A DNA stretch of 39,899 nt from Clostridiales bacterium. GTDB taxonomy: Bacteria; Bacillota; Clostridia; Lachnospirales; WRAX01. Below are positions 24,045-39,139 of this stretch, in pieces (position 1 is the stretch's first letter; each line of letters opens with the position of its first letter). Below the pieces are notes generated by a model. The model saw only the letters and a list, made by a program, of their open reading frames with translations, was not told the origin of the DNA and searched no databases. Made by a program: the position numbers and the translations under genes. The DNA lies in the NCBI GenBank assembly GCA_031271375.1, contig JAISVU010000027.1:1-39899 (forward strand), read 5' to 3'.

Positions 24045-24091
24045 AAACACTGAGCTGAAATAAGCTCCGGGTTATGCTGCGAGGTGCTCCT

Positions 24092-24481
24092 ATGAAATAT
24101 GTTTATCCTGCAATTCTATATCAAGACGATGGAAAGGTGGGCGTCACGGTTCCCGATTTACCTGGCTGCCATACCTACGGCAACGATAAAGCCGATGCGA
24201 TTCTAATGGCTAAGGACGCGGTCGAAATGTGGCTATGGGACGCTGAGAACAACGGCGAACAAATACCATCCGCGTCAGAAACCCTGCCGTCTGTAACAGG
24301 CCAAACAATAACCCTGATCGTCGCTGACACAGACGAATACCGGCAGGCTAACGATACGAGAGCGATAAAGAAAACACTCTCGATTCCTTCATGGTTAAAT
24401 CAGAAAGCCGAAAAGGCAAATGCGCCGTTTTCCCAGATCCTCCAACAAGGGTTGAAGGAATATCTGAATATCACGGAGTAA
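24092..24481 (+). CDS. hicB: HicB-family antitoxin with C-terminal ribbon-helix-helix-type DNA-binding region
   Basis: MKYVYPAILYQDDGKVGVTVPDLPGCHTYGNDKADAILMAKDAVEMWL is a classic HicB N-domain. RBS GAGGTG. Confidence 0.8.
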   Translation: MKYVYPAILYQDDGKVGVTVPDLPGCHTYGNDKADAILMAKDAVEMWLWDAENNGEQIPSASETLPSVTGQTITLIVADTDEYRQANDTRAIKKTLSIPSWLNQKAEKANAPFSQILQQGLKEYLNITE

Positions 24482-25505: not shown

Positions 25506-25829
25506 CTACCAGACTATAAGCCTGATAATGTCCTCGGCTTGGTCGTATGAGTCTTCCTGCGCTTTGGAATACAGTTTCTCGCAGTTTAAAAGAGCCTCCC
25601 TAAAGCTGTCCAAAGAATCGTGGAGCTTCGTCGTTACGGAATCCTTCGAGTCGACGTCGTCCCACTTCCTGCCGAATGCCATCGCGTCTTCGCCCATCCA
25701 GCCGGACGCAAGCATCGATTTCACTTCCCCGTCCGCTTCCTTCATTTGCCTGTTTTGAAGCTCGCAGTATTGCTTTACCGCCGCCGCCGTTTCTTTCAAC
25801 GCCCGGCGGTCTACATTTATCATCGCCAT
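25506..25829 (-). CDS. WXG100-like small helical protein (candidate effector partner 3)
   Basis: 107 aa, helix-turn-helix layout with a central W-M-G (SGWMGEDAMAF). Last gene of the T7SS block. Confidence 0.65.
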   Translation of the reverse strand: MAMINVDRRALKETAAAVKQYCELQNRQMKEADGEVKSMLASGWMGEDAMAFGRKWDDVDSKDSVTTKLHDSLDSFREALLNCEKLYSKAQEDSYDQAEDIIRLIVW

Positions 25830-25839
25830 AAAATTAACC

Positions 25840-26139
25840 TCACTTAAAATTATCGGCTAGCTTTGTATTATGTTCCTCAACCGCGATATAACCCGGATTT
25901 ATCTGCTGTTCCAGCATGGCTATATAGTTTTTTATAACGCTATGGCGGGCTTTTCCTCCGCTTATTATCCGCCGTAACGTGCCAATCGCCGCGTCCCCCG
26001 CGCTGCTGTTCCAGCCGTCGTCAAGCCGCTTCGACGTTCTTTCCAGAGCCGACATCTCGTTGTCAATAGCGTTATTGACGCTCTTGAGCTTAGTTATCGT
26101 CACGCCGACCCTTGCGGTGTCAATCGACTGCTTTGCCAT
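25840..26139 (-). CDS. WXG100/SACOL2603-like small helical protein (candidate effector partner 2)
   Basis: 99 aa with a central DDGWNSSAGDAA turn. The C-terminal tail ...KLADNFK parallels the EsxA-like ...QLSDAFK. Confidence 0.6.
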   Translation of the reverse strand: MAKQSIDTARVGVTITKLKSVNNAIDNEMSALERTSKRLDDGWNSSAGDAAIGTLRRIISGGKARHSVIKNYIAMLEQQINPGYIAVEEHNTKLADNFK

Positions 26140-26162
26140 AAAAATCAGCTCCCATCATAGTC

Positions 26163-26405
26163 TTATGAAAATATGCCGCTGATAAAGTCGCCGACATCTT
26201 CAAAAAAGTCGCCAGCTTTCTTGAATATGCTTTCATCCATATTATTAAGATCGGTTCTTATACCCTTGTACTTAGATATAATCTCGCCTACGGCATCCGC
26301 GCAGACTTTCTCGCCTATTCCCGTAAAATCCCCGCGGATTCCCTGTTCAATCCTTTCAAGCTCTCTTATGATATCCCCAACCTTGCTCCGGCATTGTTCC
26401 AGCAT
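26163..26405 (-). CDS. Small helical protein (candidate effector partner 1)
   Basis: 80 aa, acidic, predicted all-helical. It lies 5 nt downstream of the hydrolase gene stop. Confidence 0.5.
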   Translation of the reverse strand: MLEQCRSKVGDIIRELERIEQGIRGDFTGIGEKVCADAVGEIISKYKGIRTDLNNMDESIFKKAGDFFEDVGDFISGIFS

Positions 26406-26410
26406 GGCAA

Positions 26411-28135
26411 TTAACCCCCCATCATGTTATGCGCCTTGTTTTCAGCGGCCTCAAGCCGATCTGCGGTGTCGTTCAAGTAGTTTCTAATCCTTCCCAGGGT
26501 GAGGCTGCTGCCAGTAAGTATGTTTGCCTTAGCCACAGAGAGCTGGTCTATAATCCTAACCTCGCTGTAAAGGCTGTTCATCATCCTGTCAAGCTCCTTA
26601 ATATCTGTATTTACCCTCCCGACGCTTACTGCGTAGTCCCTCAGCGCCAATGTGTCGGCTTTGATGACAAAATGATCCTTCACATAATCGTCGCCGTGGT
26701 TGAAAGCGTCTTTTATCCATTCGGCAACTTTCTGAAGACCTTCCTTGATTGCATGAAAGATGTCGACCACGATATCCCACACATCGCCGAGTACTCTAAA
26801 CACTGCTTCCAACAAGGCTTTCATTGCTTTCAAAAACTCTTCCACATGAGTCACAAAAAATACTATTTTCTTGATCGCCGACACGATTATTATTATTGGC
26901 TTTGCGATATATACGGCTGCTAAAACGGCTAACCCAAATGCCACAGTCACCCCAATTAAAATCCCTATCTCCGCTATAGAGGCGTCATTGAAAGTATATT
27001 CTATTATAGCTCGTATATCCTCGGGCACCGCCTCTGCGATTAAATCAAACGCGAGCTTGGGCCTTGTTACAAGAGTCCATAGAATGGCAAAAAAGCCCAT
27101 TTGCTGGAACCCCATAGCTTCATCACTGAACAGGAACGCATACCAATTATCGGCTTCAAGGCCGATTTTTTTCAGGTCGTCCCAGTCCTTTGAACCCATA
27201 ACAATCTCAAGGAACCCCATAATTGTCTTGGCAGTGTCGTCCCGGTACTTCTTAGGCAATTTGTTTATCATGCCTACTATTTCAACCATCATTAACGCCA
27301 CAGGGCCTTGTTCAACCCTCTTCCCTTTATTGTCGAAGCGCGAATACAGCCTGCCGGTATTAGGATCAATCATACAAGCCATATCATGCCAGCCGACAAA
27401 GCCGTCATTGCCTATGGTTTCAACATAATATGTATTCTTTTTTGCCGCGAATTCCCTTTGCCCCAGCATATTGACATAGTCGTTGTTACCGTTAATCGCG
27501 AGTATCTTCTCTCTGGCCGCGTTAAAATGCTCGATTCCGTAGCGCTTCAGAATATGATTGTACAGGTCGTCAGAATGATTGGGACCGTCAAGAGAAAGGC
27601 AAAGGTCAATCAAACTTGAGTATTCAGACATCATCGTGACGTATTCCGCCACGTTCCCCCCCTGGGAATGCCCGCCCACAATAAGCTCTCCGGTATATCC
27701 ATGTCCGGCGTATGCCTTGACGCACTCATCGAAGAAAGTAAGGCCGTCCGCCTGTATCTGGGAGCTAATTCCGTCGGGGGCCATCGCTCCTTCCAAGTCA
27801 ACGCCGAATGAGATGGGATTTTGTACCCAGCCGCCTTTGGGAGTTCCTCTGTATTGGACATATACCGCGTTATCGTCTTTGAAGCATACCGCGCTCATTG
27901 GCGAATCGAAGCCCGCGTCTATGCTTGTTCTCAGAATCTTCATTTTGCCTATGGACGGGTCTTGATCAATAGCCGTCCTTATCAAATCGATATACTGACG
28001 GTTATCAGACTTTGCATCAAGGTCTTCGAACACTTCCTGTAAAGGCGTGCCCTCTCTTATTGGCTCATTATTGTCCGCGATAAGATACGTCAAAAGCTCC
28101 AGCACCGTGGACTTATTAATCAGGGCTTCATTCAC
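26411..28135 (-). CDS. Mbeg1-like (DUF2974) alpha/beta-hydrolase (lipase-type) protein with a central hydrophobic hairpin and C-terminal helical domain; candidate T7SS toxin
   Basis: 574 aa. YRGTPKGGW... and the nucleophile elbow GGHSQGGNVAEY...SLDGPN match the Mbeg1/DUF2974 pattern. Residues about 386-429 are strongly hydrophobic (IAEIGILIGVTVAFGLAVLAAVYIAKPIIIIVSAIKKIVFFV). Residues about 430-574 are amphipathic helices. The GTG start overlaps the upstream stop (GTGA). Confidence 0.8.
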   Translation of the reverse strand: MNEALINKSTVLELLTYLIADNNEPIREGTPLQEVFEDLDAKSDNRQYIDLIRTAIDQDPSIGKMKILRTSIDAGFDSPMSAVCFKDDNAVYVQYRGTPKGGWVQNPISFGVDLEGAMAPDGISSQIQADGLTFFDECVKAYAGHGYTGELIVGGHSQGGNVAEYVTMMSEYSSLIDLCLSLDGPNHSDDLYNHILKRYGIEHFNAAREKILAINGNNDYVNMLGQREFAAKKNTYYVETIGNDGFVGWHDMACMIDPNTGRLYSRFDNKGKRVEQGPVALMMVEIVGMINKLPKKYRDDTAKTIMGFLEIVMGSKDWDDLKKIGLEADNWYAFLFSDEAMGFQQMGFFAILWTLVTRPKLAFDLIAEAVPEDIRAIIEYTFNDASIAEIGILIGVTVAFGLAVLAAVYIAKPIIIIVSAIKKIVFFVTHVEEFLKAMKALLEAVFRVLGDVWDIVVDIFHAIKEGLQKVAEWIKDAFNHGDDYVKDHFVIKADTLALRDYAVSVGRVNTDIKELDRMMNSLYSEVRIIDQLSVAKANILTGSSLTLGRIRNYLNDTADRLEAAENKAHNMMGG

Positions 28136-28755
28136 TCTATTGTTCTCCTCTCAAAGTACACGTCCTTATAACCTTCCAAGTATCTGCCTGAGTAACTATC
28201 GTTAGTTGAGAGCTTTATTATGCTTAGTGAGTAATGGAGGCCACGTTCTTTCAGTTCCTTTAGGAAATCAACCGCGGCGCTTTCGTCAATCGTATCGGCG
28301 GTGATGTCGGCGTGAATCAGATGGTTTTTATATATGATATATTCATCAAACCCCGTTGAAGGGGAAATCCCTTCTGTTGAAGAAGCTCTTGGAATACTAA
28401 CAGTCACTTCGGGATTGTCAAAGAACCTATTGGCTATTTCTGTGAGATATTCCACAGTTCGGGTTTCATAATAAAAATCCATGAAATTATCCTTATATGT
28501 CTCTTCATCTCCGCTGCTGTAAATAACCACCAATATCTCTTTTCCTGGAAGGCTTTTCGCGGAAACAAGTATGGGATGCTGATCTCTGGGAGTCCCGGTA
28601 GACCCCCAAGGCCCGATGTAACTAAACTCCTCGCCATAGCGTTTTTCCATGTATTCCAAAGCCCCGTCATACACATTTCCTTTTTTGAGCATACAGCCAT
28701 AACCCCCTAGTATCACCCCTGCCATTAAAAGCAGCGGAATTAAATATCTTCTCAT
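28132..28755 (-). CDS. Membrane-anchored/lipoprotein-like protein, candidate immunity protein
   Basis: 207 aa. N-terminal signal/anchor MRRYLIPLLLMAGVILGGYGC (non-canonical lipobox). Translationally coupled to the hydrolase gene. The immunity role is inferred from position only. Confidence 0.65.
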   Translation of the reverse strand: MRRYLIPLLLMAGVILGGYGCMLKKGNVYDGALEYMEKRYGEEFSYIGPWGSTGTPRDQHPILVSAKSLPGKEILVVIYSSGDEETYKDNFMDFYYETRTVEYLTEIANRFFDNPEVTVSIPRASSTEGISPSTGFDEYIIYKNHLIHADITADTIDESAAVDFLKELKERGLHYSLSIIKLSTNDSYSGRYLEGYKDVYFERRTIE

Positions 28756-28833
28756 ATCGGTTATCGTAACCTCCGCCGTTCCCGGGCATTGCGGGCGGGA
28801 TAATCCCGCCCCCTTAAACCCGTCATAGAGTTA

Positions 28834-29142
28834 CTACTTAAACGCATCCGAAAGCTGTACGTTCGCGTTCTCTGTCGCCGTGTAGTCCTCGGCCACGTTT
28901 CTCTGGAGGAACTTTACGTACTGGTCAAGAACGTCGTGAAACGTCTGGAAATACTTGCCGGCGAATTCGTTGTATGAATCGCGGGTTTGCTCTGCCGCCT
29001 GGCCCGTCCAGTAGGTCGACAGGCTGTCAACGGTCGCCTTGCTTTCGTTTAGCAGCTGCTGAAGCTGGTCGTTGTCGCCGCTGATTTGCGAAGCGATTGA
29101 CAGCACTTGTTCTGTATCAAGAGTGATTTGAGTGTTTGCCAT
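28834..29142 (-). CDS. esxA: WXG100 family protein, EsxA-like
   Basis: 102 aa with central YWTGQAA (W-x-G). The C-terminus EDYTATENANVQLSDAFK contains YxxxE and a tail resembling S. aureus EsxA ...QQLSNNF... Confidence 0.85.
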   Translation of the reverse strand: MANTQITLDTEQVLSIASQISGDNDQLQQLLNESKATVDSLSTYWTGQAAEQTRDSYNEFAGKYFQTFHDVLDQYVKFLQRNVAEDYTATENANVQLSDAFK

Positions 29143-29152
29143 ATGCTCCTCC

Positions 29153-29449
29153 TTAATTGCTCAGTTGTTTAACGCTGGCAATGTTATTGTCCCGGTTGGC
29201 TTCGTAGTTGGCCGCTTGCTGATCCAACGCCTTAGCGGCTATCTCAATATGTTCGGTCATGGCTTTCAAATCATCGCAGAATCCCGTGATCTGCTCCACG
29301 AAGGCAAGGTTGTCCGCTGCCCTCCAAGCGTCGCCCATTGTTTGGGCCGCGTTCATCAGGCGGTTATGGACCGTGTTGTACTCCGCCGCCAATTCAGTAA
29401 ACTTCTGAGACGCTTTGTGCAATTCCGGTGGGTCTACTACTAGCTTCAT
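29153..29449 (-). CDS. WXG100-like partner protein (W-R-A in place of W-x-G)
   Basis: 98 aa, helical hairpin, central GDAWRAADNLAF. RBS AAAGGAGGAAG. Confidence 0.7.
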   Translation of the reverse strand: MKLVVDPPELHKASQKFTELAAEYNTVHNRLMNAAQTMGDAWRAADNLAFVEQITGFCDDLKAMTEHIEIAAKALDQQAANYEANRDNNIASVKQLSN

Positions 29450-29497
29450 TTTCTTCCTCCTTTTTAGATATTATCTATAATGCGTATAGCATTATAT

Positions 29498-29749
29498 TCA
29501 AATTAAAAGCAGTTTAGACGAATTGCGGATGCCGGCGTCGAATACGTTGATATTCCGGTCGAAGGGCCTTCCTGAGGCGGCGTCAAGGAGCATTGTGTCC
29601 GGGGTTCCCTTAAAACTCCCCCCGCAAATTGATTCCGCCAGGCGGACAAGAAGCGCAGTCGTATCCGATATCAGCTTCCCCGCGGGAATAAAAGCATCGA
29701 TATGCCTGCCCGACGCCGGTATATATACGTCAACCAAGTATTTCGTCAT
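29498..29749 (-). CDS. esaB: YukD/EsaB ubiquitin-like T7SS protein
   Basis: 83 aa: MTKYLVDVYIPASGRHIDAFIPAGKLISD...DAGIRNSSKLLLI. Start 29749 with RBS GGGGAAG. The longer ORF to 29935 overlaps the essC 3' end. Confidence 0.8.
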   Translation of the reverse strand: MTKYLVDVYIPASGRHIDAFIPAGKLISDTTALLVRLAESICGGSFKGTPDTMLLDAASGRPFDRNINVFDAGIRNSSKLLLI

Positions 29750-29760
29750 TTTGACTTCCC

Positions 29761-32700
29761 CTAATCTATCAATTTCACCAGCGCCGCAGACCCTTCGGTT
29801 ATTACAAACCCGTACCCCGGCGAGGTCTCCGCCTGGTAATCGGCGGTGCGTTTGTTTACGGTGAGTCGGTACTGGTTGTTTATCCCGCTGCCGGCCCAGA
29901 TGCCAGACATCGGATTGAAATGCGTTCTGTACCATTCCTCGGCCGTGAACGGGTTTAACGCGTTCACGGCATCGCCCACAACGAAATGGATATTGTATTC
30001 CTTAACGCATTTATCCATAGCCGTTTGAAGCCGGTTAAACGGAGTGTCGTCGTCCGCTTCCTTCTTTTCGTCCTCGGGCGGCCTGTAGCGTTCCAGCGCT
30101 GTTTTTAAAGCCGCCATAGACTGGATCATAACGAAGACATCCTCAAACACCGGCGGCGCTTCCCCCGCGTTCATCTTGTCTTTATACCCGTTATTCCTGG
30201 CAAGGGCCAAGTCATATACCTCATGGGCGCTCTTTACCAATTCCTCCAGGCCGGAGCCTCCCTGCGGCGTTAACATGATGGTTTTGACATCGTAATTATC
30301 CGCAATGAACGCACTCAAAGAACCCATGAACCCCTGCCACTCCTGGCCGGACGAAAGCACAAGGTTTACCGGGTTTTTAGTGAAATCATAATAAGCGATG
30401 TCCAGCGTGGATTTCTCCATACCTACCGGGACTTTGGAAAAATCATCTTTAGTTATATAGTCCTTCAAGAACTGCCCGTCAACCTTTTCCCTGATTACCG
30501 GAACCTTGACAGCGGTTTCGTTTAACGCGCCGTACTTGCCCAAAACCTCTTTTGAGAATTTTTGGATAAAGGTATAGGAGGATTCGTCCGCGCTTAGGCA
30601 GGATGTCTGAAATTCCAACAGGCTGTCTTTATCCCTGCGGAATAATCCCCTGCCTTTAAACCCTTCGGGCTGCATTCCCCCGGTCTTGCCGACGACAGAT
30701 GAATAATCGTCCGGGTTATTGAGCCTAAGGCAGAAAAGCTGTTTAAAGTTCTGCAGCAAAGCGAACCTGACATTATTGACCCCTATACAGGTCAGGATAA
30801 AGAAAATGCCGTATTTCGTCCCTTCCCTTGTGAGATAGCTGAGTTCGGCGGCTTTTTCCTCATAAAGCTCGTTAAAGGCGGCGTAGTTGTTGATAATAAT
30901 AAGCATCGCGGGTTCGGGTTTCTCGGCGCTTTTGTTATACTCGGCAAGAGAGCCGCCGGCGCGGGAAAGGAGTTTCTTCCTTGTTTCCAGCTTACCCAAA
31001 GCCAGCTTGAACAGATTGCCGACCTTTTCCTTCTCATACGAAAGTATGACGTCGCCGACGTGTGGCGCCTCGGAGAAAGCCGTCAAAGTCTCGGCGTCAA
31101 AGTCCAGTATATAGATATTCACTTCCTTAGGGGAATGCTCTTTTATCAGCGAATAGCATAAAGCCTCGACAAACATTGCCTTGCCGCTGCCTGATGAACC
31201 ATATACGATTACGTTCCCTTCCTGGGTTATCGGTACGCGCAGGAGGCCCTGGGCCTGCCTTGTCGGGTCGTCATACTCTCCGGCCACGGGGTTAAGCACA
31301 AACGGCTTCCCCCTGAGCTCCCCGTATTTTTCCGTAATCTCATCCGAATAAATCAAATCGGGCAGCGGGTCAAGCCACATCTTCCAGCGGCTTATCCCTT
31401 CCTCCCTGCTGACCTTCTCTATGTATGAAGTCATTACGTCAAGCTGCTTTTTCGGATCCTTTATCATCGCGAACCTATCCGTATTGGCTTCGGCGATGAC
31501 CTTCCCGTTGGTATTGATCACGGTAAGGCTGTCGTCCCGGTCTTTAATGACCTTTGACGAGGGATAGTACGGCGCTCCGGCCCAGGCCGACTGCCCGATC
31601 TCGAAGAGTTCGTTATACCCAACCTGAAGATAGAACCGGCCCGGATTGACAAGGGCCGCCGCGTCGGGCCTCTCAAGCATCTCCATGCTGTCCCCGCTGT
31701 CCTGCACCTTTAAGCAAACCTTGAAGCGGCTGTTGCTGCGGACCTGATCGTCAACGACGCCGCCGGGCTTCTGGGTCGCCAGGATCAAATGAACGCCGAG
31801 GCTGCGCCCGACGCGGGAGGCGCTGGTCAGCTCGGTCATAAAATCGGGCTGTTCCTTCTTTAATTCGGCGAACTCGTCGGATATGATAAACAGATGGGGC
31901 AGCGGAACCTTGACCTTCCCGTCCCGGTAGAGCTTTTGGTATTTGTAGATGTCGATACTGCCGATACCGTGCTGCTGCGCGGTATCGCGGAATATCGTCT
32001 CCCTGCGGTGCAGCTCGCTCCGCATAGAGGCGAGGGAACGCTTTATCCCGTTCCCGTCAAGGTTTGTGATTACCCCGGCGGTGTGGGGTATGTTCTCAAA
32101 GGCCTTCGCCATGCCGCCGCCCTTATAGTCTATCAGGATAAAAGCCACTTCGCGGGGATGGAAGGATACGGCCAATGAAAGGATATATGCGGTTATAAAC
32201 TCGCTTTTCCCCGACCCGGTCATCCCGGCGACAAGGCCGTGGGGGCCGTGGGCCTTCTCATGGAGGTCAAGTTTGAACGGTTCCCCGTATTTGTCTACGC
32301 CCACAACAACGGCCAACGATTTTGCCGGATTGTTATTCGACCAGTTCTCCGGCAGGTTCAAATGCTCAATCATCCCTATCTCAAGCATTTCAAAGAAGGA
32401 GTATTTGGGCGGCAGAGCGAAGTTTGAACCGTTTATGTCAATAAATGTGTTGGCCAAAACCTTCGTAGCCCTGTCCATATCCAATGATTCAGGGTTGTCC
32501 GCGATGAAGGCTATGGACGGGTCGCTGACATCGCTTATATATGTAAGGCTTGATACAGAGCCGTCCCCCGGCCTTCCCCTAAGCTCCGCCACGGCGGAAC
32601 ATTCCTTCGGCAGGTCTTTAAGCCTTCCGAACAGCGAAAGGACTGAGAATTTCAAGTTTTCTTTGTGTTCGGCCACCCTGCGGACGCACTCGGCTTTGGA

Positions 32701-34404
32701 AGCCAAATCCTTGTCCAGGCAGATTATAACGTAATACGGCTTTTCGTCCTCCAGTTTGCTTTCGGTTAAATCCTTGCGGTCTTCGATAATCCGGTCAAGG
32801 GAAAAAGAGAGGGCCTTCGCCTCGTCGGAGTTGGTGGCGATATAGCGGACGGTCTTGTCGTCGCTCATCGTATGGGGAAGCCACCGGGCGAATGCGAATT
32901 CCTCTGAATCCTTTTCGTCGTAGATCATAACGAGCTTAACCTCGTCATAGCTGTGCAAAGCCACGATTTGGAGAATAAGGCTCTTCGCGTAAGCGAACAG
33001 TTCCCTCCGGTTGGGGGACAGCGAGTATATGCCGCTGATATACCGCTCGACAAGGGGAAGGCACACCGGCACGTCGCTCAAGATATGCTCCTCTTCACCA
33101 AGCGCGTACATTTCCTCGGTTAGATTATCCGGCTCTACCGTGAATTGCCGGTGCGGGTAGGTTATGTTCGCCTTGAGCGGCAGATCGCCGTAACCCAGCC
33201 TAAGGGAAAGGAAATCCTTATGCTTGGGAGTGCGTTCCCAGATGAGGGGCGTCGGAGCCAGTATCCTGTCCAGATAAGCAGCCGCGGCGACATCGTTGGC
33301 CCGCATTATCCGCTCCTGCTCCGCAGTTTCAATTTCAATAAGCCCGCGAACCTGTTCAAGATACTTATGGTACATTTCCTGCCGTTTAGCTTCTTTCCTC
33401 ACCCTTAGCCTGCGCTGAAACGACTTAGTGATGACCGGCCACATGACGGTTCCCAGCAGCATACTGAAACACATGACCACCGAAGGCAGCGCCTGGGTTA
33501 TGTCCCCCCGCTGCAACGCGCTGGACACCGCAAAAGTACCGCTGGCTATGGAAGCCATTCCCATCGTAAGGGACGGCCCGATGAGCATGATCATCGGCAC
33601 GTCGTCGCTGCCCTGCTTGGCGGTCGGGGGATCAAGTTTCAGCTCATACTCGTCAACCCCGTGCTTGAACCGGGGCGCCCGGTAGAAATAATCCTCCGAA
33701 AAGTCCAATTCCTCGTCATTGTCCGGCTCCGGGTCGGCGGTTGCGGATGGAGGCCGGTACTCGGCTAAATCCGCGCTCTGTATCCGCACATTGCCGTCGG
33801 GATTGTTGACGAAGATTAAGTCCCCCGCTACGATTATCTGCATTCCCAGAATATAGACGACATCGCCCGCGTGCAGGCGGCGCTGCTTAACGGCGACGCC
33901 ATTAACATACGTGCGGTTCCTGCTGTCCAAATCCCTCACGGCGGCCCCGTTATTGGACAGGGCCAGCTCGGCGTGGGCGGCTGAAACAAATTTGTTCCCG
34001 TAGCAAATATTGTTGGCGGTTTCCCGTCCGATGCTTAGAACCGTCTTCGCCGCTCTCAGCCTGTAAATACCGTATCTCAGGCGGTCGGCGCTGAGGGGCT
34101 CTGTATACAGGATGTATTTGACCTTCCTGTCCTTGCTCTGGACCCTGTAAAGCTCCATTGGGTTCAATACGGCGGAAAGGAGTTCGTTATTGTCTTTGTC
34201 GACAACGCTGAACCTGCGGTTGGATTTTACCCTCCATTCGGAAACCCCGCCGGATTCCAGCGACCTTGAGGCCTCCACCGCCACGATGTCCGCCCTGTTG
34301 CCCTGATCCCCGCCGTCCTTTCCGCGCAGCCAATAATGCCCGGCGTACCGCTCCGGCAGTGTGATGCTTGTGTAATCGTTTTCAGAAAAGAGGGTTAGCT
34401 TCAT
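29761..34404 (-). CDS. essC: EssC/YukB FtsK-SpoIIIE-family T7SS ATPase with N-terminal FHA domains
   Basis: 1547 aa. The FHA region has GR...SAAH...NRTYVNG. It has TM helices and Walker A sites GMTGSGKSE and GSSGSGKAM. The architecture is typical of T7SSb EssC. Confidence 0.95.
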   Translation of the reverse strand: MKLTLFSENDYTSITLPERYAGHYWLRGKDGGDQGNRADIVAVEASRSLESGGVSEWRVKSNRRFSVVDKDNNELLSAVLNPMELYRVQSKDRKVKYILYTEPLSADRLRYGIYRLRAAKTVLSIGRETANNICYGNKFVSAAHAELALSNNGAAVRDLDSRNRTYVNGVAVKQRRLHAGDVVYILGMQIIVAGDLIFVNNPDGNVRIQSADLAEYRPPSATADPEPDNDEELDFSEDYFYRAPRFKHGVDEYELKLDPPTAKQGSDDVPMIMLIGPSLTMGMASIASGTFAVSSALQRGDITQALPSVVMCFSMLLGTVMWPVITKSFQRRLRVRKEAKRQEMYHKYLEQVRGLIEIETAEQERIMRANDVAAAAYLDRILAPTPLIWERTPKHKDFLSLRLGYGDLPLKANITYPHRQFTVEPDNLTEEMYALGEEEHILSDVPVCLPLVERYISGIYSLSPNRRELFAYAKSLILQIVALHSYDEVKLVMIYDEKDSEEFAFARWLPHTMSDDKTVRYIATNSDEAKALSFSLDRIIEDRKDLTESKLEDEKPYYVIICLDKDLASKAECVRRVAEHKENLKFSVLSLFGRLKDLPKECSAVAELRGRPGDGSVSSLTYISDVSDPSIAFIADNPESLDMDRATKVLANTFIDINGSNFALPPKYSFFEMLEIGMIEHLNLPENWSNNNPAKSLAVVVGVDKYGEPFKLDLHEKAHGPHGLVAGMTGSGKSEFITAYILSLAVSFHPREVAFILIDYKGGGMAKAFENIPHTAGVITNLDGNGIKRSLASMRSELHRRETIFRDTAQQHGIGSIDIYKYQKLYRDGKVKVPLPHLFIISDEFAELKKEQPDFMTELTSASRVGRSLGVHLILATQKPGGVVDDQVRSNSRFKVCLKVQDSGDSMEMLERPDAAALVNPGRFYLQVGYNELFEIGQSAWAGAPYYPSSKVIKDRDDSLTVINTNGKVIAEANTDRFAMIKDPKKQLDVMTSYIEKVSREEGISRWKMWLDPLPDLIYSDEITEKYGELRGKPFVLNPVAGEYDDPTRQAQGLLRVPITQEGNVIVYGSSGSGKAMFVEALCYSLIKEHSPKEVNIYILDFDAETLTAFSEAPHVGDVILSYEKEKVGNLFKLALGKLETRKKLLSRAGGSLAEYNKSAEKPEPAMLIIINNYAAFNELYEEKAAELSYLTREGTKYGIFFILTCIGVNNVRFALLQNFKQLFCLRLNNPDDYSSVVGKTGGMQPEGFKGRGLFRRDKDSLLEFQTSCLSADESSYTFIQKFSKEVLGKYGALNETAVKVPVIREKVDGQFLKDYITKDDFSKVPVGMEKSTLDIAYYDFTKNPVNLVLSSGQEWQGFMGSLSAFIADNYDVKTIMLTPQGGSGLEELVKSAHEVYDLALARNNGYKDKMNAGEAPPVFEDVFVMIQSMAALKTALERYRPPEDEKKEADDDTPFNRLQTAMDKCVKEYNIHFVVGDAVNALNPFTAEEWYRTHFNPMSGIWAGSGINNQYRLTVNKRTADYQAETSPGYGFVITEGSAALVKLID

Positions 34405-34442
34405 ATTTGCCCCCGTTCTATTGCCAGTGTTCCGGCCATTGC

Positions 34443-35972
34443 CTACTTGAACAACAGCTCTGTAAGGCCGCTTTTATGTTCGCTCCCCGGACCGGGGACG
34501 TTGAGCAGGGTTATATTATCTATATGTAATGATTCTCTTCCGCATTTTATTACATCGCCGATTTTGACCGGGACGTTCTCCGTTACCGTAACCCCGTTCA
34601 GCCTGGTTTTATTTGTCTTGCTCAAGTGAATGATTACGACGCCGTCATCCCCGGCGGTGATTTTACACTGTTCCCTGGAAACCGTTTTATCCTCAAGCCG
34701 CAGGCCGCAGTGCTCCCCCCTGCCGATAAGCAGCTCGTCTTGAAATGACAGCGCCCATGTCTTTTTGGGGTCCTTCTGATTTGTCAGCTCAATCGAACAA
34801 CGGCTTGCAAACGGCCCTTTGCCGTATTCGGAATCGCCGTGCAAAAGTATTGTGTCATCGTCTTCATAATACTCCGGAGCGGCCTCAGCAGGCTCCCCGG
34901 CCTTCTTCCTTCGAAGGATTACAATAAAAAGAATGCCTGCGGCGGCTAAGACCAGCACAACCCCGGCGGCGATAAATATACCGCCTGGAATGCGTTCCTT
35001 AACAGGTTCGGGCTCGGGAATAACCTCTTCGTCAGCCGGTTCCGGCGCTGACGTGACAGGGGGTTGCGCGATAGGGCTGTCAACAGCCGGATACTTAAAG
35101 TCTGCGGTCAATTCAAGACTGCCGTCGGCAATATCGGTCTGCCTCACAGACCCGTCCATAAGGTTGGGTGGGGTAATGGCTTCGAGATAGGAATAACCGG
35201 CGACGGAAAGGGACGCCGCCAAGCCGCCCGGATCAGACGACGGGTCGAGGGTAAAATACCGGCCCCCGCTCAAACGCACTATTGAAGACAGCTCTTTGCT
35301 CTCGGGGCCGCCCTCGCTGACGCGCACCGCGTCGATCGGGTAGAACTTATCCTGCAGTTCGATCAGAAGCTCCTCTAATGTAATGCCTCTGGCGGTATCG
35401 TCTACCCCGTCCGTTATAACGACAGTCCGGTAAAAGACCGGCTTCCCGTCATGGGGTTCAAGGAGCGGGATCGTATCCTGTATCGCGTTGTAGACAATGC
35501 TCCAGTCCCCGTCAAACTCGACTTCGTCTATACCCTTCGCAATGTCGTAACGGTCTGATGAGAATTCCGTAAGGACGGTCAGCTCTTCCCCGAATATGGC
35601 AAGCCTGAACTCCTCGTTGGCCGCCTTGTTTTCGACCAGTTCATTAAGCGTTTCGATTACGACGCTTCTGGCGTCTCTGGGCATTGAGGTGGATATGTCA
35701 ACCAATAAGGTTGTTTTAATAAGGGCGTTTGGGCCGGAAAGGGAACCCGCAGCGGTTACCTCTGCGGGGATATTGGACACGGCAAGCCTAACGCTCTCGG
35801 CGTTCAACGGCCCGTCGGTAAAGACAGTCACAGCTCGTCCCGATATGTACATCTGGGAGATTTTCTGGTTTCCGCCGCCTACGGCGGACACGCTTAGGTA
35901 AGGCCCGTTAAACAGCGTAACGGATAGGAGTACGGCAATAAATACTGTAAACGCGGCCGGATACTTTTTCAT
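34443..35972 (-). CDS. Secreted vWA domain - TM helix - cytoplasmic FHA domain protein
   Basis: 509 aa. Signal peptide, MIDAS-type LLVDISTSM, ...VVITDGVDD, Pro/Glu-rich linker, TM IFIAAGVVLVLAAAGILFIVIL-RRKK. The C-terminal FHA has LLIGRGEHC...VSREQ...NKTRLNG. Confidence 0.85.
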   Translation of the reverse strand: MKKYPAAFTVFIAVLLSVTLFNGPYLSVSAVGGGNQKISQMYISGRAVTVFTDGPLNAESVRLAVSNIPAEVTAAGSLSGPNALIKTTLLVDISTSMPRDARSVVIETLNELVENKAANEEFRLAIFGEELTVLTEFSSDRYDIAKGIDEVEFDGDWSIVYNAIQDTIPLLEPHDGKPVFYRTVVITDGVDDTARGITLEELLIELQDKFYPIDAVRVSEGGPESKELSSIVRLSGGRYFTLDPSSDPGGLAASLSVAGYSYLEAITPPNLMDGSVRQTDIADGSLELTADFKYPAVDSPIAQPPVTSAPEPADEEVIPEPEPVKERIPGGIFIAAGVVLVLAAAGILFIVILRRKKAGEPAEAAPEYYEDDDTILLHGDSEYGKGPFASRCSIELTNQKDPKKTWALSFQDELLIGRGEHCGLRLEDKTVSREQCKITAGDDGVVIIHLSKTNKTRLNGVTVTENVPVKIGDVIKCGRESLHIDNITLLNVPGPGSEHKSGLTELLFK

Positions 35973-36008
35973 AGCACTCGTCCCTTAAAGCACAATCCAA
36001 TTTATGGT

Positions 36009-36037
36009 ATTATCCCACAAAAAACCGGTAATGTCAA
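36009..36037 (-). promoter_or_regulatory. Candidate internal promoter upstream of the vWA-FHA gene/essC
   Basis: On the minus strand: TTGACA, 17 nt, GATAAT. Confidence 0.4.
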
Positions 36038-36076
36038 TAGCTAATTCGCCCGGTCATTCGGAGGAATATCAAAGGA

Positions 36077-37774
36077 TCATGAATCGGGCACATATATCCA
36101 TTTAGTGTACTTCTGCACGCCATCCACGAAAACATACACCGTTTCTTCCGACCTGAGCAGCGCCATATCCACATAAACCGTATGCGGCAGCATATCTCTG
36201 CTTACTGTCTCCGAATAAATCGTCAGCCAAAAACCCGACGAATCCTTCCTTTGAATCGTGACCCATGCTTCGTCGGCCACGTCCGTGAACTCATTTGCCG
36301 TTATCGTAAACGCGTAGGCCGGATTAGAGGGAGGTGTAAAAGGGGGAGGTTCGCTTTCCGTTATTTCAGGCGTTTTGGCAGGCGTTCTGTAGGGCGGTTC
36401 AATGCCCCGACCATCGTCAGACCCGGCTTCATCGGGACGCCGTGACTGCTCCGGCGGCGGCGTTTCCGATGCGATATCTTCATAACCCGTTTCTTCTCCT
36501 TCTTCTCCGGTACCGCCGCCCGGTTCAGGGGTCATTGAATACCCTGTAAGGGCATTAGCCGATGGATCCGAAGGATTCGCGGTGAGGCCGGGCGTCGAAG
36601 GGACCGCAGGTTCGGAGGGCGGCGTTTCTTGAAGCGGGATTTCGGTTACAAGCCCCGCCGTTCCGTGAGCCGTCCTATCGTCGCGCTCAACAAAAAACCA
36701 CGGCAGAACAAACAAAGCGGCCGCAAGTAAAACCAATGCCCCGGCGACAACGATGATAAGCCGGTAATTTAAAGCGCTCTTATGTTTTTTAGGTTTAGGC
36801 GGCAAAGGCGGCGGAACGTCGCGGGACGGTTTTGGGGACGGGCTTGAGGCGCCGCTGTAAGAGCCCTCGGGCCCTTTGGATGAGCGCGGCTTTAAGACCC
36901 GCGCCTCTTTCTCTTCCCGGCTCAGTCCATCTAGACATTTCTCAAGCCCCGCTTTGAAGCTTTCCGCGTTCTTATAGCGGTCTTTCTTAGGGGCGCAGGC
37001 TTTCGACAGGCAATCCGCGAGCCTTTTGTTCCCGTGAATAGGGGGCGGGAACTCTTCCGTCCTGGACTTTCTTAGCAGCTTATACAGCACGATGCCCAGT
37101 GAATAGATATCAACTGTGTGGTCTCCCGGTTCCCTCGCGCTTATTTCCGGGGCCATGTATTCAAAAGTCCCCGCGACCGTCATAACCTGCGAGCCGCCGG
37201 ACAGATTCTTCGCGACGCCGAAATCCCCCAGCTTATACCCTCCCTCATCTGTGACGAAAAGGTTGGCTTCCTTAATGTCCCTGTGGACGACACCGTTTTT
37301 ATGGCACAGAATCAAAGCCTCACAGACGCTGATACCCAGAGACAGGATATCCCCGAGGCTCATCCCCTTTTCAAAAATAGCCGTCCTGAGGGGCTTTAGA
37401 TATTCCATCCTAATGAATATCTCACATCTGGACGGGTTATCGTACCGTTTTATTTCATGGTCGTAATAATTCACTATGTAGCGGCTGTCCTTCTTGCTAA
37501 GTTTGAAAAGGTTTGTTATTTCCTCCGTAGCCAGCTTGACCCGCTTTAAATAGCGCGAAAGGCTCGCGGCGCCGCCGTCGGTTACGCCGTCATAATCAAA
37601 TGATTCGCTTTCGCCTTCATCCCGGATTTCTATATGCTTGACAGCATAATTAATCCCCGTCTCCTCGTCCGCGGCCAGATAAACGCTTCCTGACGCGCCT
37701 CCGCCCAGGAACTTTATTAACTTGTGCCTTCCGGCATACCCGCCGGTTAAGTCGCGGCGTCCGCTTATATCCAT
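36077..37774 (-). CDS. Hanks-type Ser/Thr protein kinase - TM helix - Pro-rich linker - small extracellular beta domain
   Basis: 565 aa. G-loop LGGGASGSVY, AVKHI lysine, HRDIKEANL, DFG, YMAPE, TM LIIVVAGALVLLAAALFVLPWFFV. Confidence 0.9.
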   Translation of the reverse strand: MDISGRRDLTGGYAGRHKLIKFLGGGASGSVYLAADEETGINYAVKHIEIRDEGESESFDYDGVTDGGAASLSRYLKRVKLATEEITNLFKLSKKDSRYIVNYYDHEIKRYDNPSRCEIFIRMEYLKPLRTAIFEKGMSLGDILSLGISVCEALILCHKNGVVHRDIKEANLFVTDEGGYKLGDFGVAKNLSGGSQVMTVAGTFEYMAPEISAREPGDHTVDIYSLGIVLYKLLRKSRTEEFPPPIHGNKRLADCLSKACAPKKDRYKNAESFKAGLEKCLDGLSREEKEARVLKPRSSKGPEGSYSGASSPSPKPSRDVPPPLPPKPKKHKSALNYRLIIVVAGALVLLAAALFVLPWFFVERDDRTAHGTAGLVTEIPLQETPPSEPAVPSTPGLTANPSDPSANALTGYSMTPEPGGGTGEEGEETGYEDIASETPPPEQSRRPDEAGSDDGRGIEPPYRTPAKTPEITESEPPPFTPPSNPAYAFTITANEFTDVADEAWVTIQRKDSSGFWLTIYSETVSRDMLPHTVYVDMALLRSEETVYVFVDGVQKYTKWIYVPDS

Positions 37775-38422: not shown

Positions 38423-39139
38423 TTATTCCACAATCAATATCCCGCCCATCCCCAACGCCGTCTTTGCCCCAACCCCCGCATAGGCGGAGTAGCGAACAAG
38501 CAAGGCCAGACGGTCACGCTGTTCCTGATCTCCGCCGGGGCAGAGCGTTAGCTTGCCTTCAAAGCCAGGACGGGCGATACCAGGCTTGATTCTGTATTCC
38601 GCGGTACGCAGTTCATAGCGGGTATAGGTAACGAGGTCGCACAGCGTAAATACTTCTTCGTTGGAAATATCAATGCCCTCATACTTCCGCAGCTTTGCCG
38701 CGGCGGTATATAAAAGCGGCGGCAGCGAGTATAGATTAGAGGGACGCCGGTTATGGCGGTATGACGCCGGGGACGCTAGAATTATTCGGAATTCTTTAGG
38801 AGCCGGGCCGCGTAATTTCCCAATCGTAACCGCCGGTTTTTCAATGCGGTTCTCTATCATTATACCGTTTCTCAGCCACGATATTGCGATTGACCGCGCT
38901 GACTTCACCGCGTCAAAAAGCGGCGCGGCGTCCTCATGCAGCAAAGACAGCCGCAGCGCGATGTTGTTTTTCTGCACCCGGGCGAATAAGCTGAACGGCC
39001 GCAAATCGTCGGACATGTGCATCAGCTTAGAGTATTCCTCGCTGACCTGCCTCATCAGCCAGGCGTGAACCTTTACCGCCAGCTCACAGTTAAGCCGGGT
39101 CAGGTCGGGCTTTTCAAGGACGAAGTCAATTTGCCGCAT
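38423..39139 (-). CDS. cas6: CRISPR-associated endoribonuclease Cas6
   Basis: 238 aa. C-terminal glycine-rich loop YAGVGAKTALGMGG is typical of Cas6. It is adjacent to the repeat array. Confidence 0.75.
   Translation of the reverse strand: MRQIDFVLEKPDLTRLNCELAVKVHAWLMRQVSEEYSKLMHMSDDLRPFSLFARVQKNNIALRLSLLHEDAAPLFDAVKSARSIAISWLRNGIMIENRIEKPAVTIGKLRGPAPKEFRIILASPASYRHNRRPSNLYSLPPLLYTAAAKLRKYEGIDISNEEVFTLCDLVTYTRYELRTAEYRIKPGIARPGFEGKLTLCPGGDQEQRDRLALLVRYSAYAGVGAKTALGMGGILIVE

Follow-up and report, generated by a model that had tools for sequence, protein, structure and literature searches.

The window analysed here, a stretch of 39,899 nucleotides from an uncultured Clostridiales bacterium, carries a five-gene cassette, Lipo207-Hyd574-sm80-sm99-sm107, that probably constitutes a self-contained module for an effector of a T7SSe-like type VII secretion system, with Hyd574 as the exported lipase and Lipo207 as its immunity lipoprotein. 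Its most likely products are a secreted lipase that attacks membranes and has an export tag at its tail, a protective lipoprotein and three helpers. Reverse T7SS substrates were recognised only in 2023 (PMC10730906), and just two families of them have been studied, both staphylococcal lipases. While this kind of module is known from Staphylococcus, the Hyd574 family itself is uncharacterised. It extends the reverse lipases to strictly anaerobic Clostridia, with many of the related loci found in metagenome bins labelled animal gut or rumen. A preliminary description of this DNA had proposed a reverse-architecture T7SS effector, a reading that comparative genomics supports through the C-terminal domain, its use by forward cargo, the partner genes and the tandem and orphan gene copies.

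The T7SS locus

All features described below are encoded on the (-) strand. The locus comprises genes for a membrane Ser/Thr kinase (36077..37774; Pfam Pkinase, 1.6e-36), preceded by a promoter-like site at 37846-37818, a membrane protein conserved in related loci, in which Pfam identifies vWA and FHA domains (34443..35972), and an ATPase of the EssC type that has an FHA domain at its N-terminus (29761..34404; Pfam FtsK_SpoIIIE 1.3e-50, FHA 2e-13). Next come a YukD/EsaB-like ubiquitin-fold protein (29498..29749) and the core WXG100 proteins WXGa (29153..29449; Pfam WXG100 E 2.5e-7, 31.3 bits) and WXGb (28834..29142; E 4.6e-10, 40.1 bits). The YukD-like protein has a weak Pfam YukD match and 83-residue homologues at 54-63% identity, and its true start is probably M63 of a 145-residue open reading frame. 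The module lies directly after this EssC(FHA)-YukD-WXG100-WXG100 series, and a terminator scan revealed no convincing intrinsic terminator within the locus.

T7SSe was described in Neobacillus (Garrett et al. 2024, PMC11217815), where relatives of WXGa are also located, as a system composed of EssC with an FHA domain, two WXG100 proteins, a YukD-like protein, a membrane kinase, a PP2C protein and TseH/I/J/K (PMC11217815). The locus in the window encodes EssC-FHA, the two WXG100 proteins, the YukD-like protein and the kinase but neither a PP2C gene nor a large Ig-like gene of the TseI type; it may be a reduced Clostridia version of such a locus. A search for a CRISPR array beside the nearby Cas6 gene returned none.

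A predicted class-3 lipase at the N-terminus

Hyd574 (26411..28135, stop codon included) is a putative reverse-architecture lipase of 574 residues, with a GTG start codon 7 nt downstream of a GAGGAG Shine-Dalgarno sequence. The conservation pattern marks it as a real gene rather than a chance open reading frame, because it has full-length homologues, the best at E 4.5e-169, and residues G97, T98, W103, S157, D183, D219 and H250 are invariant between it and 19 homologues. Since a word-indexed homology search provided only 27 Hyd relatives and 2-8 Lipo relatives, we turned to scans of genomes and to a full search with HMMER.

The preliminary description had placed a hydrolase with YRGT, GGW, GGHSQGG and DGPN motifs at the N-terminus and suggested a comparison with Mbeg1/DUF2974 profiles. 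All four motifs are present where expected, at residues 95, 101, 154-160 and 183, respectively, and the Pfam Mbeg1-like signature (PF11187, DUF2974) matches residues 72-193 (E 5.2e-7, 29.8 bits), above its gathering cut-off of 21.1 bits; Hyd574 homologues score 26-53 bits with this profile. GGHSQGG forms the nucleophile elbow (27656..27676), invariant in the 19 homologues, and the predicted nucleophile is therefore S157. The GHSxGG motif is found in 94 of the 104 long representatives of the Hyd family. With S157, D219 (or D183) and H250 in place, the triad is intact and Hyd574 is a predicted Ser-Asp-His hydrolase.

The alpha/beta-hydrolase domain, with a class-3-lipase fold according to AF2 and Foldseek, spans residues 1-380 (26996..28135), of which a helical subdomain at the N-terminus and a helical linker are part, and is modelled by AF2 with pLDDT values mostly of 85-97. 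Foldseek matches it best to class-3 lipases and feruloyl esterases of fungi in the PDB (probability 1.00, with E from 7.5e-6 to 6e-4), among them Yarrowia Lip2 (3O0D), the template used for the reverse lipases TslA and TslM (PMC10730906, PMC13560087). The model thus identifies the N-domain as a predicted class-3-lipase-fold serine hydrolase. At the sequence level, the best PDB match of Hyd574 is ROP at E 0.55, which is chance level, and an NCBIfam search gave no match for Hyd574, Lipo207 or sm80. Export through Sec or Tat was considered and rejected, as the N-terminus lacks the features of a signal peptide and belongs to the confidently folded domain in the AF2 model; the 'twin-arginine' name of the Hyd homologue from Desulfitobacterium hafniense looks like an automatic mislabel.

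A WXG100-like, putative targeting domain and its candidate partners

Residues 430-574 are predicted to be all-helical by AF2, in agreement with the helical C-terminus of ~145 residues noted initially, at a pLDDT below 50, as throughout the C-terminal 190 residues. This region starts with a variable amphipathic helical linker (residues 432-489, 26669..26842; AF2 helices of low confidence), which in the alignment carries an insertion relative to the closest homologues. The linker is followed by a WXG100-like helical hairpin (residues 490-574, 26414..26668), a putative T7SS targeting domain with its turn at LTG540-542 and a tail ending in AENKAHNMMGG.

Pfam searches at E 10 with the C-terminal 149 residues of Hyd574 and with one forward-protein N-terminus yielded no LXG or WXG100 call, and profile-profile comparison was therefore required. 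Using hhalign, the C-domain (the last ~85 residues) matched WXGb of its own locus (86%, E 5e-6, 74 columns) and the N-terminus of 'forward' cargo proteins (100%, E 3e-38). The latter are 365-445 residues long and, in five loci whose T7SS is of the same type but which have no lipase at this place, fill the slot beside the same partners. In public data the targeting domain is found in 590 representatives, being C-terminal in nearly all of the best 150, and at least 438 sequence clusters at 50% identity harbour the tag. We also found a lipase-tag-CHAP protein in which enzymes flank the tag on both sides (locus L003), and a candidate forward lipase (locus L009).

The three small genes reported to follow the lipase gene were found, coding for proteins of 80, 99 and 107 residues. 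The first, sm80 (26163..26405), is a helical partner that is not WXG100-like; it represents a conserved family, also devoid of Pfam matches, whose genes adjoin that of the lipase, or of another cargo, in almost every locus. The WXG100-like partner sm99 (25840..26139) is related to WXGb by hhalign (99.9%, E 7e-36), and sm107 (25506..25829) to both WXGb (97.5%) and WXGa (95.9%), with sub-threshold Pfam WXG100 matches for both partners (E 3.7e-4 for sm107). By these profile comparisons sm99 and sm107 are WXG100 paralogues, the former of WXGb, and they co-occur with cargo in at least 34 loci. In combining a C-terminal WXG/LXG-superfamily domain with WXG100-like partners, Hyd574 has the sequence hallmarks of a reverse T7SS substrate.

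The hydrophobic segment

A Kyte-Doolittle scan delineated a hydrophobic segment between the enzyme and the helical region (residues 384-431, 26843..26986), with a core at residues 389-411, followed by KP and then by a shorter hydrophobic stretch containing KK. A hydrophobic hairpin of roughly 43 residues had been proposed here: the stretch is present, but the hairpin is not established, as AF2 models a single long helix at residues 387-421. Across the family the length of the segment varies from one helix to two. A hydrophobic region is found in 101 of 114 Hyd family representatives (89%), a feature newly described here, at a median of ~218 residues past the catalytic Ser; it is missing from ~11% of the members and is kept in relatives without the C-domain. 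This conservation suggests a membrane-anchoring step, none being described for TslA or TslM.

TspA, EsxX and TelE are also reported as T7 substrates with a membrane-inserting hydrophobic or glycine-zipper element. In these proteins, the C-terminal hydrophobic element is described as the toxin itself, a pore or depolariser, whereas in Hyd574 the segment is internal and lies beside an enzyme. A hydrophobic helix in a T7 substrate requires shielding before export; for TelE, extra proteins are reported to stabilise the toxin at that stage.

The conserved position of the segment could also denote an enzyme that is exported by the T7SS and stays bound to the producer, anchored in its own membrane or surface, with Lipo207 as a local regulator. 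Such a cell-bound lipase would serve to attack cells upon contact or to harvest lipids of the host or its diet, in line with its origin in Clostridia and with the gut and rumen MAGs that contain many related loci, and the relatives found outside T7SS loci do resemble tail-anchored lipases. Nevertheless, we consider this unlikely. To our knowledge, insertion of membrane proteins by a T7SS has no precedent. Tandem Lipo arrays and fast divergence (see below) are present, and an arms race therefore fits better than a regulatory role. Furthermore, those reverse lipases that have been characterised are toxins that the cell releases (PMC10730906, PMC13560087).

Distribution and evolution of the module

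With WXGa alone as the query, we found 47 T7SSe-like loci in Clostridia and Bacilli, and in 41 of them the module follows the WXG100 pair, an association newly reported here. Homologues of the complete Lipo-Hyd-s80-s99-s107 series lie right after two WXG100 genes in seven Neobacillus and several Bacillus, Oceanobacillus and Paenibacillus loci, and the Neobacillus citreus lipase homologue is Mbeg1-like. A Lipo homologue directly precedes the lipase gene in 35 of the 47 loci, at times in 2-3 copies, and several loci have two Lipo-Hyd pairs with one common partner set. One module forms an orphan five-gene island (L072). Outside T7SS loci (L012, L069), the relatives have neither the C-domain nor partner genes, and their Lipo homologue lacks a signal peptide.

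Its presence after the WXG100 pair in 41 of the 47 loci makes the module unusually constant if it encodes a polymorphic toxin, and a component of the system could show the same constancy. Hyd574 and Lipo207 could accordingly be conserved working T7SS parts, rather than cargo, with a role in substrate processing or in remodelling of the membrane or envelope. MycP, the membrane-anchored protease of the mycobacterial T7SSa, offers an analogy. A machine part would be consistent with the hydrophobic helix being of membrane-spanning length, with the scarcity of other membrane proteins in the window's locus, which has just EssC, the vWA-FHA protein and the kinase, and with a very compact locus (L070) in which the pair is flanked by the WXG100 genes on one side and by an FHA protein on the other. 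We nonetheless regard this role as quite unlikely, since the five loci mentioned above have other cargo with the same tag in place of the lipase, and since some loci have multi-copy arrays in which the lipases are of different subtypes, while modules and Lipo copies also occur as orphans. The module is also found beside an EssC only 33% identical to that of the window (L009, L011), and part of the family dispenses with the hydrophobic segment. Finally, identities at related loci are 28-48% for Hyd and 24-49% for Lipo, as opposed to 56-66% for EssC and 63-77% for WXGa/WXGb, and by this measure the lipase and lipoprotein evolve much faster than the secretion machine.

A broader reading, which we hold to be doubtful, is that the lipase module is the ancestral, near-obligate payload of the T7SSe-like lineage across Clostridia and Bacilli, with a tag that works, in one and the same locus, at either end or in the middle of a protein. 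The conserved hydrophobic segment might then turn the lipase into a membrane-inserting enzyme toxin, a mode that would, if true, be undescribed for T7SS. In its extreme version, the lipase-lipoprotein pair may be a functional part of the machine.

The putative immunity lipoprotein

Lipo207 (28132..28755), a putative immunity protein, is encoded upstream of the lipase gene, and its stop codon overlaps the Hyd574 start codon as GTGA. This overlap and the lipoprotein-like character of the gene had been pointed out before, and both hold: the product starts with MRRYLIPLLLMAGVILGGYGC, a lipoprotein signal peptide and lipobox with Cys21 (28693..28755), in which MRRYLIPLLLMAGVILGGYG-C21 fits a PROSITE PS51257-type pattern upon manual inspection, and G-G-x-G-C is conserved among Lipo207 homologues at T7SS loci. 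Lipo207 is thus a predicted bacterial lipoprotein. A shorter public gene call (P0028, starting at M22) was rejected because homologues conserve the lipoprotein signal 5' of M22.

Pfam searches at E 0.1 found no match for Lipo207, which hence belongs neither to DUF576 nor to DUF1433. In its AF2 model (pLDDT 82), the only fold match is the DUF5037 protein 4GL6, of unknown function, with a TM-score of about 0.35-0.39, and searches of Pfam, NCBIfam and folds showed no similarity to known immunity families. Tandem or orphan Lipo paralogues occur in several loci (three in L009, two in L010, others in L027 and L047). Together with the tight coupling to the lipase gene and the fast evolution, they suggest that Lipo207 behaves like an immunity gene.

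Lif chaperones are membrane-anchored proteins encoded beside Pseudomonas and Burkholderia lipases. That Lipo207, with its adjacent, translationally coupled gene, its predicted tethering outside the cell and its dissimilarity to known immunity families, would similarly be an extracytoplasmic lipase-specific foldase or activator is very improbable, given the paralogues typical of immunity repertoires, the lack of a fold match between Lipo207 and Lif proteins, the precedent of TilA for lipoprotein immunity, and the T7SS-less pairs, whose Lipo homologue is cytoplasmic and whose lipase is not exported, and which therefore fit an inhibitor obliged to be in the same compartment as its enzyme.

Proposed mechanism

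For the effector module that we favour, we propose that the C-terminal hairpin of Hyd574 pairs with sm99, sm107 and sm80, and that the resulting composite helical signal would be recognised by the EssC ATPase, so that the lipase would leave the cell 'tail-tagged', a route for which TslA and TslM provide experimental precedent (PMC10730906, PMC13560087). Outside the cell, Hyd574 would hydrolyse membrane (phospho)lipids of neighbouring bacteria. The translationally coupled Lipo207, tethered on the outer face of the producer membrane, would bind and block the lipase domain, thus protecting the producer and its kin. Both of these are reverse phospholipases secreted by a T7SS, and they have WXG-like partners and immunity proteins that associate with the membrane (PMC10730906, PMC13560087). 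More speculatively, the hydrophobic segment might belong to the toxin unit rather than to the tag and hold the enzyme on or within the bilayer of the target, by monotopic or hairpin insertion, and one of the partners may shield it in the producer cytoplasm.

Comparison with known systems

The likeness to the TslA system put forward in the preliminary description holds for gene order and fold but not for the lipase family, the immunity family or the number of partners. TslA/Tsl1 of the S. aureus T7SSb, with TilA, TlaA1 and TlaA2 (PMC10730906), has the same order of lipoprotein, lipase and small helical partner genes. Like Hyd574, TslA has an N-terminal Ser-Asp-His lipase whose fold is of the class-3 (Yarrowia Lip2-like) type and whose triad residues are similarly spaced (S164/D224/H251 in TslA, S157/D219/H250 in Hyd574), and a helical domain for targeting at its C-terminus, and both modules can sit apart from T7SS core genes.

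Whether the two hydrolases match had been left to be checked. We used a Tsl1 member recovered from the FlaGs source data of the TslA paper. The hhalign probability was 8% with a shallow Hyd profile and 75% (E 2.5e-5, 86 columns) with a deep profile of 167 sequences, which aligns D219 of Hyd574 with the catalytic Asp region of TslA. In Pfam, Hyd574 is Mbeg1-like, whereas the Tsl1 member has a weak Lipase_3 match. Judged by these profiles, the Hyd574 lipase is outside the TslA/Tsl1 family, the two being remotely related at the superfamily level only. The C-domain profile has no detectable similarity to the Tsl1 C-terminus (1.1%). The immunity proteins also differ, with DUF576 (Csa1/Lpl) for TslA (7e-104 in a TilA-like protein) and an unrelated DUF5037-like fold for Lipo207. 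TslA has two partners and Hyd574 three, the T7SS subtypes are distinct, and the word 'transmembrane' is absent from the main text of the TslA paper (PMC10730906), in contrast with the hydrophobic segment of Hyd574.

TslA had been presented as the only reverse class, which is outdated, and the module is less novel than was assumed because other reverse lipases have already been published. The Tsl2 family comprises TslM of S. aureus, with TilM and TlaM (Higginson et al., August 2026; PMC13560087). Its immunity protein TilM is a signal-anchored DUF1433 protein encoded divergently, unlike the co-directional, overlapping lipoprotein gene of our module; there is one WXG100 partner rather than three, and the middle region of TslM is predicted to be unstructured rather than hydrophobic (PMC13560087). 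By this published description, Hyd574 is set apart from TslM and is not a Tsl2 family member. Candidate reverse lipases were also noted in 2024 at the T7SSe locus of Neobacillus sp. 114 and the T7SSg locus of Paenibacillus aquistagni, in one sentence without analysis that cites WP_284036497.1 (PMC11217815). They probably belong to the same family as Hyd574.

The Tsl2 paper asks whether the lipase is always N-terminal to the tag, whether forward LXG-lipases exist and whether there are other reverse domains (PMC13560087). The Hyd family offers natural test cases, with a tag that, within one locus, serves lipases in reverse and other cargo in forward orientation, the variant with enzymes on both sides, the candidate forward lipase, and derivatives that lack tag, partners and lipoprotein signal together.

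Canonical LXG toxins of the T7SSb with their Lap partners share with Hyd574 a helical WXG-superfamily domain, WXG-like partners, an adjacent immunity gene and modular cargo. The orientation is reversed in Hyd574, whose tag family is used C-terminally by lipases and N-terminally by other cargo within one locus. DUF2974/Mbeg1-like domains are also effector domains of antibacterial proteins, in X-Tfes of the X-T4SS and in a Bacteroides T6SS Rhs effector, for which we found no biochemical characterisation in the literature on them; these effectors rely on other delivery systems and targeting modules than Hyd574.

Organization of the type VII secretion locus

The minus strand of the window harbours one compact type VII secretion (T7SS) locus at 25506-37774. 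Its first gene codes for a membrane Ser/Thr kinase (36077-37774), followed by genes for a vWA- and FHA-containing membrane protein (34443-35972), an ATPase of the EssC type whose N-terminus carries an FHA domain (29761-34404), a YukD-like protein (29498-29749) and two core WXG100 proteins, WXGa (29153-29449) and WXGb (28834-29142). Next come the genes for the lipoprotein Lipo207 (28132-28755), the 574-residue lipase-like protein Hyd574 (26411-28135) and three small proteins, sm80 (26163-26405), sm99 (25840-26139) and sm107 (25506-25829). The start of the YukD-like gene was re-placed from homologues: the mechanical ORF (145 residues, 29498-29935, minus strand) is over-extended, as 83-residue homologues align from its M63, which sets the start at 29749, 11 nt past the EssC stop codon.

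The enzyme domain of Hyd574

Hyd574 has a lipase fold with an intact triad. As the preliminary description had proposed, its GTG start overlaps the Lipo207 stop codon (GTGA), and the protein is an Mbeg1/DUF2974 hydrolase, matching the Pfam Mbeg1-like signature above its threshold. A Shine-Dalgarno sequence (GAGGAG) precedes the start by 7 nt. The announced motifs are in place, with YRGT at 95, GGW at 101, GGHSQGG at 154-160 (S157) and DGPN at 183. An alignment of 19 homologues showed G97, T98, W103, S157, D183, D219 and H250 to be invariant. The AlphaFold2 model is confident over residues 1-380, and in the PDB it best matches fungal class-3 lipases and feruloyl esterases. Yarrowia Lip2 (3O0D) is one of them; it is the reported template for TslA of the Tsl1 family (PMC10730906) and the lipase with which TslM of the Tsl2 family was compared (PMC13560087). 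The name 'twin-arginine translocation signal' given to the Desulfitobacterium hafniense lipase homologue seems to be an automated labelling error.

For comparisons with Tsl1, we drew on the source data published with TslA, which supplied two Tsl1-family sequences, one TilA-like lipoprotein and one partner. In Pfam, the Tsl1 protein yields a weak Lipase_3 match and no Mbeg1-like match. Our 19-sequence Hyd profile matches it at the nucleophile elbow only, and a 167-sequence lipase-domain profile does so with 75% probability (E-value 2.5e-5, 86 columns), placing D219 opposite the catalytic Asp region of TslA. These comparisons indicate that the two lipases are distant relatives in one fold class rather than members of one family. 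Sequence comparisons make D219 a likelier catalytic acid of Hyd574 than D183.

The hydrophobic segment

The hydrophobic stretch claimed for Hyd574 covers approximately residues 384-431, and from there to residue 574 AlphaFold2 predicts helices, in line with the helical C-terminus described initially. The stretch had been called a hairpin; the hydrophobic region is real, and the hairpin is one possible arrangement, since the model shows one long helix and lengths in the family correspond to one to two helices (median 34 residues, interquartile range 25-45.5). The region is present in 101 of 114 full-length family representatives, beginning ~218 residues past the catalytic Ser and stopping ~138 residues short of the C-terminus. 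The TslA paper does not mention a transmembrane segment in its main text (PMC10730906), and the middle region of TslM is described as unstructured (PMC13560087).

The putative C-terminal targeting domain and partner proteins

Pfam gave no match for the Hyd574 C-terminus, even at an E-value of 10. Profile-profile comparisons identified its last ~85 residues (490-574) as a WXG100-like tag, matching WXGb with 86% probability and the N-terminal 80 residues of 365- to 445-residue proteins from related loci with 100% probability (E-value 3e-38). By the same approach, sm99 is a clear paralogue of WXGb (99.9%) and sm107 is WXG100-like (97.5%). The small protein sm80 is conserved and helical, and neither Pfam nor NCBIfam assigned it to a family. 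The C-domain profile, run in a full HMMER search, collected 590 representatives at E-values ≤0.001, and 438 at ≤1e-10. In nearly all of the best 150 the domain is C-terminal. Among these best matches, 104 proteins have 400 or more residues, and 94 of them harbour the GHSxGG lipase motif.

The extreme C-termini are conserved as well. The lipase family tail reads ...AENKAxxYxGG, with GG at the very end in 43 of the 104 long representatives; WXGb and sm99 share ...N(T/V)xL(A/S)DxFK, conserved in their families, and sm107 homologues end in ...LPKWLYW. These tails are candidate recognition signals for EssC.

Lipo207 and a putative mechanism

The N-terminus of Lipo207 is a lipoprotein signal, MRRYLIPLLLMAGVILGGYG-C21. 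The public gene call (P0028; 28132-28755, minus strand) starts at M22 and gives a 186-residue protein, thereby cutting off this signal, which is conserved in homologues. Neither Pfam nor NCBIfam signatures matched Lipo207. Its AlphaFold2 model (pLDDT 82) resembles only a DUF5037 structural-genomics protein of unknown function from Ruminococcus gnavus, with a modest TM-score. Lipo207 is unrelated to DUF576, the family to which TilA, TslA's immunity protein, belongs, and has no Pfam match to DUF1433, the family of the TslM immunity protein TilM (PMC13560087). Genomic signatures and precedent suggest that it is a putative immunity protein.

In the most likely mechanism, the tail hairpin of Hyd574 would assemble with sm99, sm107 and sm80, and EssC would recognize the resulting composite helical signal. 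The exported lipase would then attack the membrane lipids of neighbouring cells with the help of its hydrophobic segment, and Lipo207 would neutralize it on the surface of the producer.

Conservation of the module in related loci

Using the lipase as a query against species-representative genomes, we collected ten loci, all in metagenome bins of the class Clostridia; the D. hafniense locus was added from a separate look-up. The order EssC-YukD-WXGa-WXGb-Lipo-Hyd-s80-s99-s107, the last three being homologues of the small genes, prevails in most lipase-found loci. To avoid selection on the lipase, WXGa alone served as a second query and yielded 57 loci, including some from Neobacillus, Bacillus, Oceanobacillus and Paenibacillus. 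For Neobacillus, Garrett et al. 2024 (PMC11217815) devote one sentence to a reverse lipase at a T7SSe locus.

Among the 47 WXGa-found loci with at least 3.5 kb downstream, a GHSxGG lipase follows WXGb in 41 and the five-gene module is complete in 34. Such near-constant presence in T7SSe-like loci speaks for the main rival explanation, that the Hyd-Lipo pair is a working part of the secretion machine. However, in five of the six exceptions the slot between the same partner genes is filled by a 'forward' protein, with its targeting domain at the N-terminus, as a substituted cargo. (In the sixth, L057, the same contig as L002, the lipase is divergent and lies on the other side of the locus.) The pairs also occur in multi-copy arrays: in several loci, two Lipo-Hyd pairs that differ in subtype (GHSQGG, GHSLGG, GHSKGG) and a forward protein have one partner set in common, and L009, L010, L027 and L047 carry tandem Lipo genes, two or three in each. 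Orphan modules exist, and Hyd and Lipo diverge fast, their identities to those of the window being 28-48% and 24-49%, respectively, versus 56-66% for EssC and 63-77% for WXGa and WXGb. The genomic behaviour of the pair is cargo-like, and we consider a role as machine component improbable. The module is also present beside EssC proteins just 33% identical to that of the window (L009, L011).

Two unusual settings were observed. In L072 (7309-11242), five genes form an orphan module that is surrounded by unrelated metabolic genes and separate from any T7SS core genes; it codes for a Lipo-like protein of 229 residues, a 775-residue lipase with an inserted MgtE_N-like region and three small proteins. 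In L070 (3373-13373), a very compact T7SS locus, the lipase pair sits within the minimal gene set. This locus codes for an EssC in which no FHA domain was called, a YukD-like protein, three WXG-like proteins, a 630-residue lipase, one 64-residue protein and an FHA protein. The L070 Lipo homologue has a signal anchor and lacks the lipobox Cys (GGSGF).

Tag loss and alternative tag positions

The tag is used in a modular fashion. Two Lipo-lipase pairs are found outside any T7SS locus (L012, 9423-11320; L069, 95-2346), with lipases that stop just past the hydrophobic segment. Partner genes are absent, and the Lipo homologues are devoid of signal peptides, one of them having a long acidic repeat N-terminus. 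Gain or loss thus affects the tag, the partners and Lipo's extracytoplasmic location jointly, and the hydrophobic segment, which stays with the lipase upon tag loss, belongs to the putative toxin unit. Both loci come from one metagenome and are therefore counted as one event. They may represent tail-anchored lipases with cytoplasmic inhibitors, possibly with a different biology, e.g., that of a toxin-antitoxin or defence system.

The 365- to 445-residue proteins with N-terminal tags are encoded between s80 and s99/s107 and probably constitute forward cargo of this system; they include those at L021 3836-5113 and 5604-6791, L044 11025-12302, L050 13074-14354, L053 11094-12344, L056 15760-17097 and L063 10719-11834. 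Pfam found no match in their C-terminal parts, except a weak CHAP domain in L063. In a 799-residue family member (P0037; L003 9830-12229, the same contig as L020, 11386-13785), the targeting domain is internal (477-588) and the C-terminal domain is CHAP-like, below the Pfam threshold (E-value 6.4e-5). Judging from these signatures, its tag would be flanked by enzymes on both sides, in the order lipase-tag-peptidoglycan hydrolase. An 817-residue protein encoded inside the T7SS locus of a Lachnospiraceae MAG (L009 8890-11343) has a weak WXG100-like N-terminus (Pfam E-value 0.0068, 6-83) followed by an Mbeg1-like lipase (370-512); it lacks the hydrophobic segment, and three Lipo paralogues flank it. 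It is a candidate forward LXG-type lipase, a type of which none was found according to the 2026 Tsl2 paper (PMC13560087).

Relationship to known reverse lipases

TslA (2023) and TslM (2026) are reverse T7SS lipases with the same architecture and probable mechanism as the Hyd574 module. The view that TslA is the only described reverse class is outdated; with TslM and the 2024 mention of a T7SSe reverse lipase, this kind of protein is already known. The Hyd574 module falls outside Tsl1 and Tsl2 by its lipase family, immunity family, C-domain and partner number, Tsl2 being set apart by its published description. Apparently new are the hydrophobic segment, the Lipo207-type lipoprotein family, the set of three partners, a module position that is nearly constant among T7SSe-like loci of two Bacillota classes, and a single targeting-domain family that is used in reverse, in forward and in internal positions.

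Other features of the locus

Promoter-like sites were found upstream of the kinase and vWA-FHA genes, and a scan of the T7SS locus revealed no convincing terminator inside it. Just past the WXGb stop codon and ahead of Lipo207 is a GC-rich stem of 8 bp that closes a loop of 3 nt (28793-28811, minus strand; GGGCGGGA-TTA-TCCCGCCC) and lacks a U tract. Its role may be that of an attenuator or of an mRNA stabilizer parting abundant WXG100 transcripts from the cargo genes. The interval between the vWA-FHA gene and essC (34404-34443) harbours no PP2C phosphatase gene, unlike that of D. hafniense (L001 2904-3725), and the window's locus has no gene for a TseI-like large Ig-domain protein.

The flanking genes are unrelated to the locus and include asnA, an adjoining HicB-like antitoxin gene (24074-24481, plus strand) and a cas6 gene (38423-39139, minus strand; Pfam E-value 4.6e-7), with no CRISPR array or tandem repeats anywhere in the window. 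The source is an uncultured member of the Clostridia lacking close sequenced relatives, as judged from AsnA, which shares no more than 66% identity with any species representative and has nearly all of its best matches in Clostridia.
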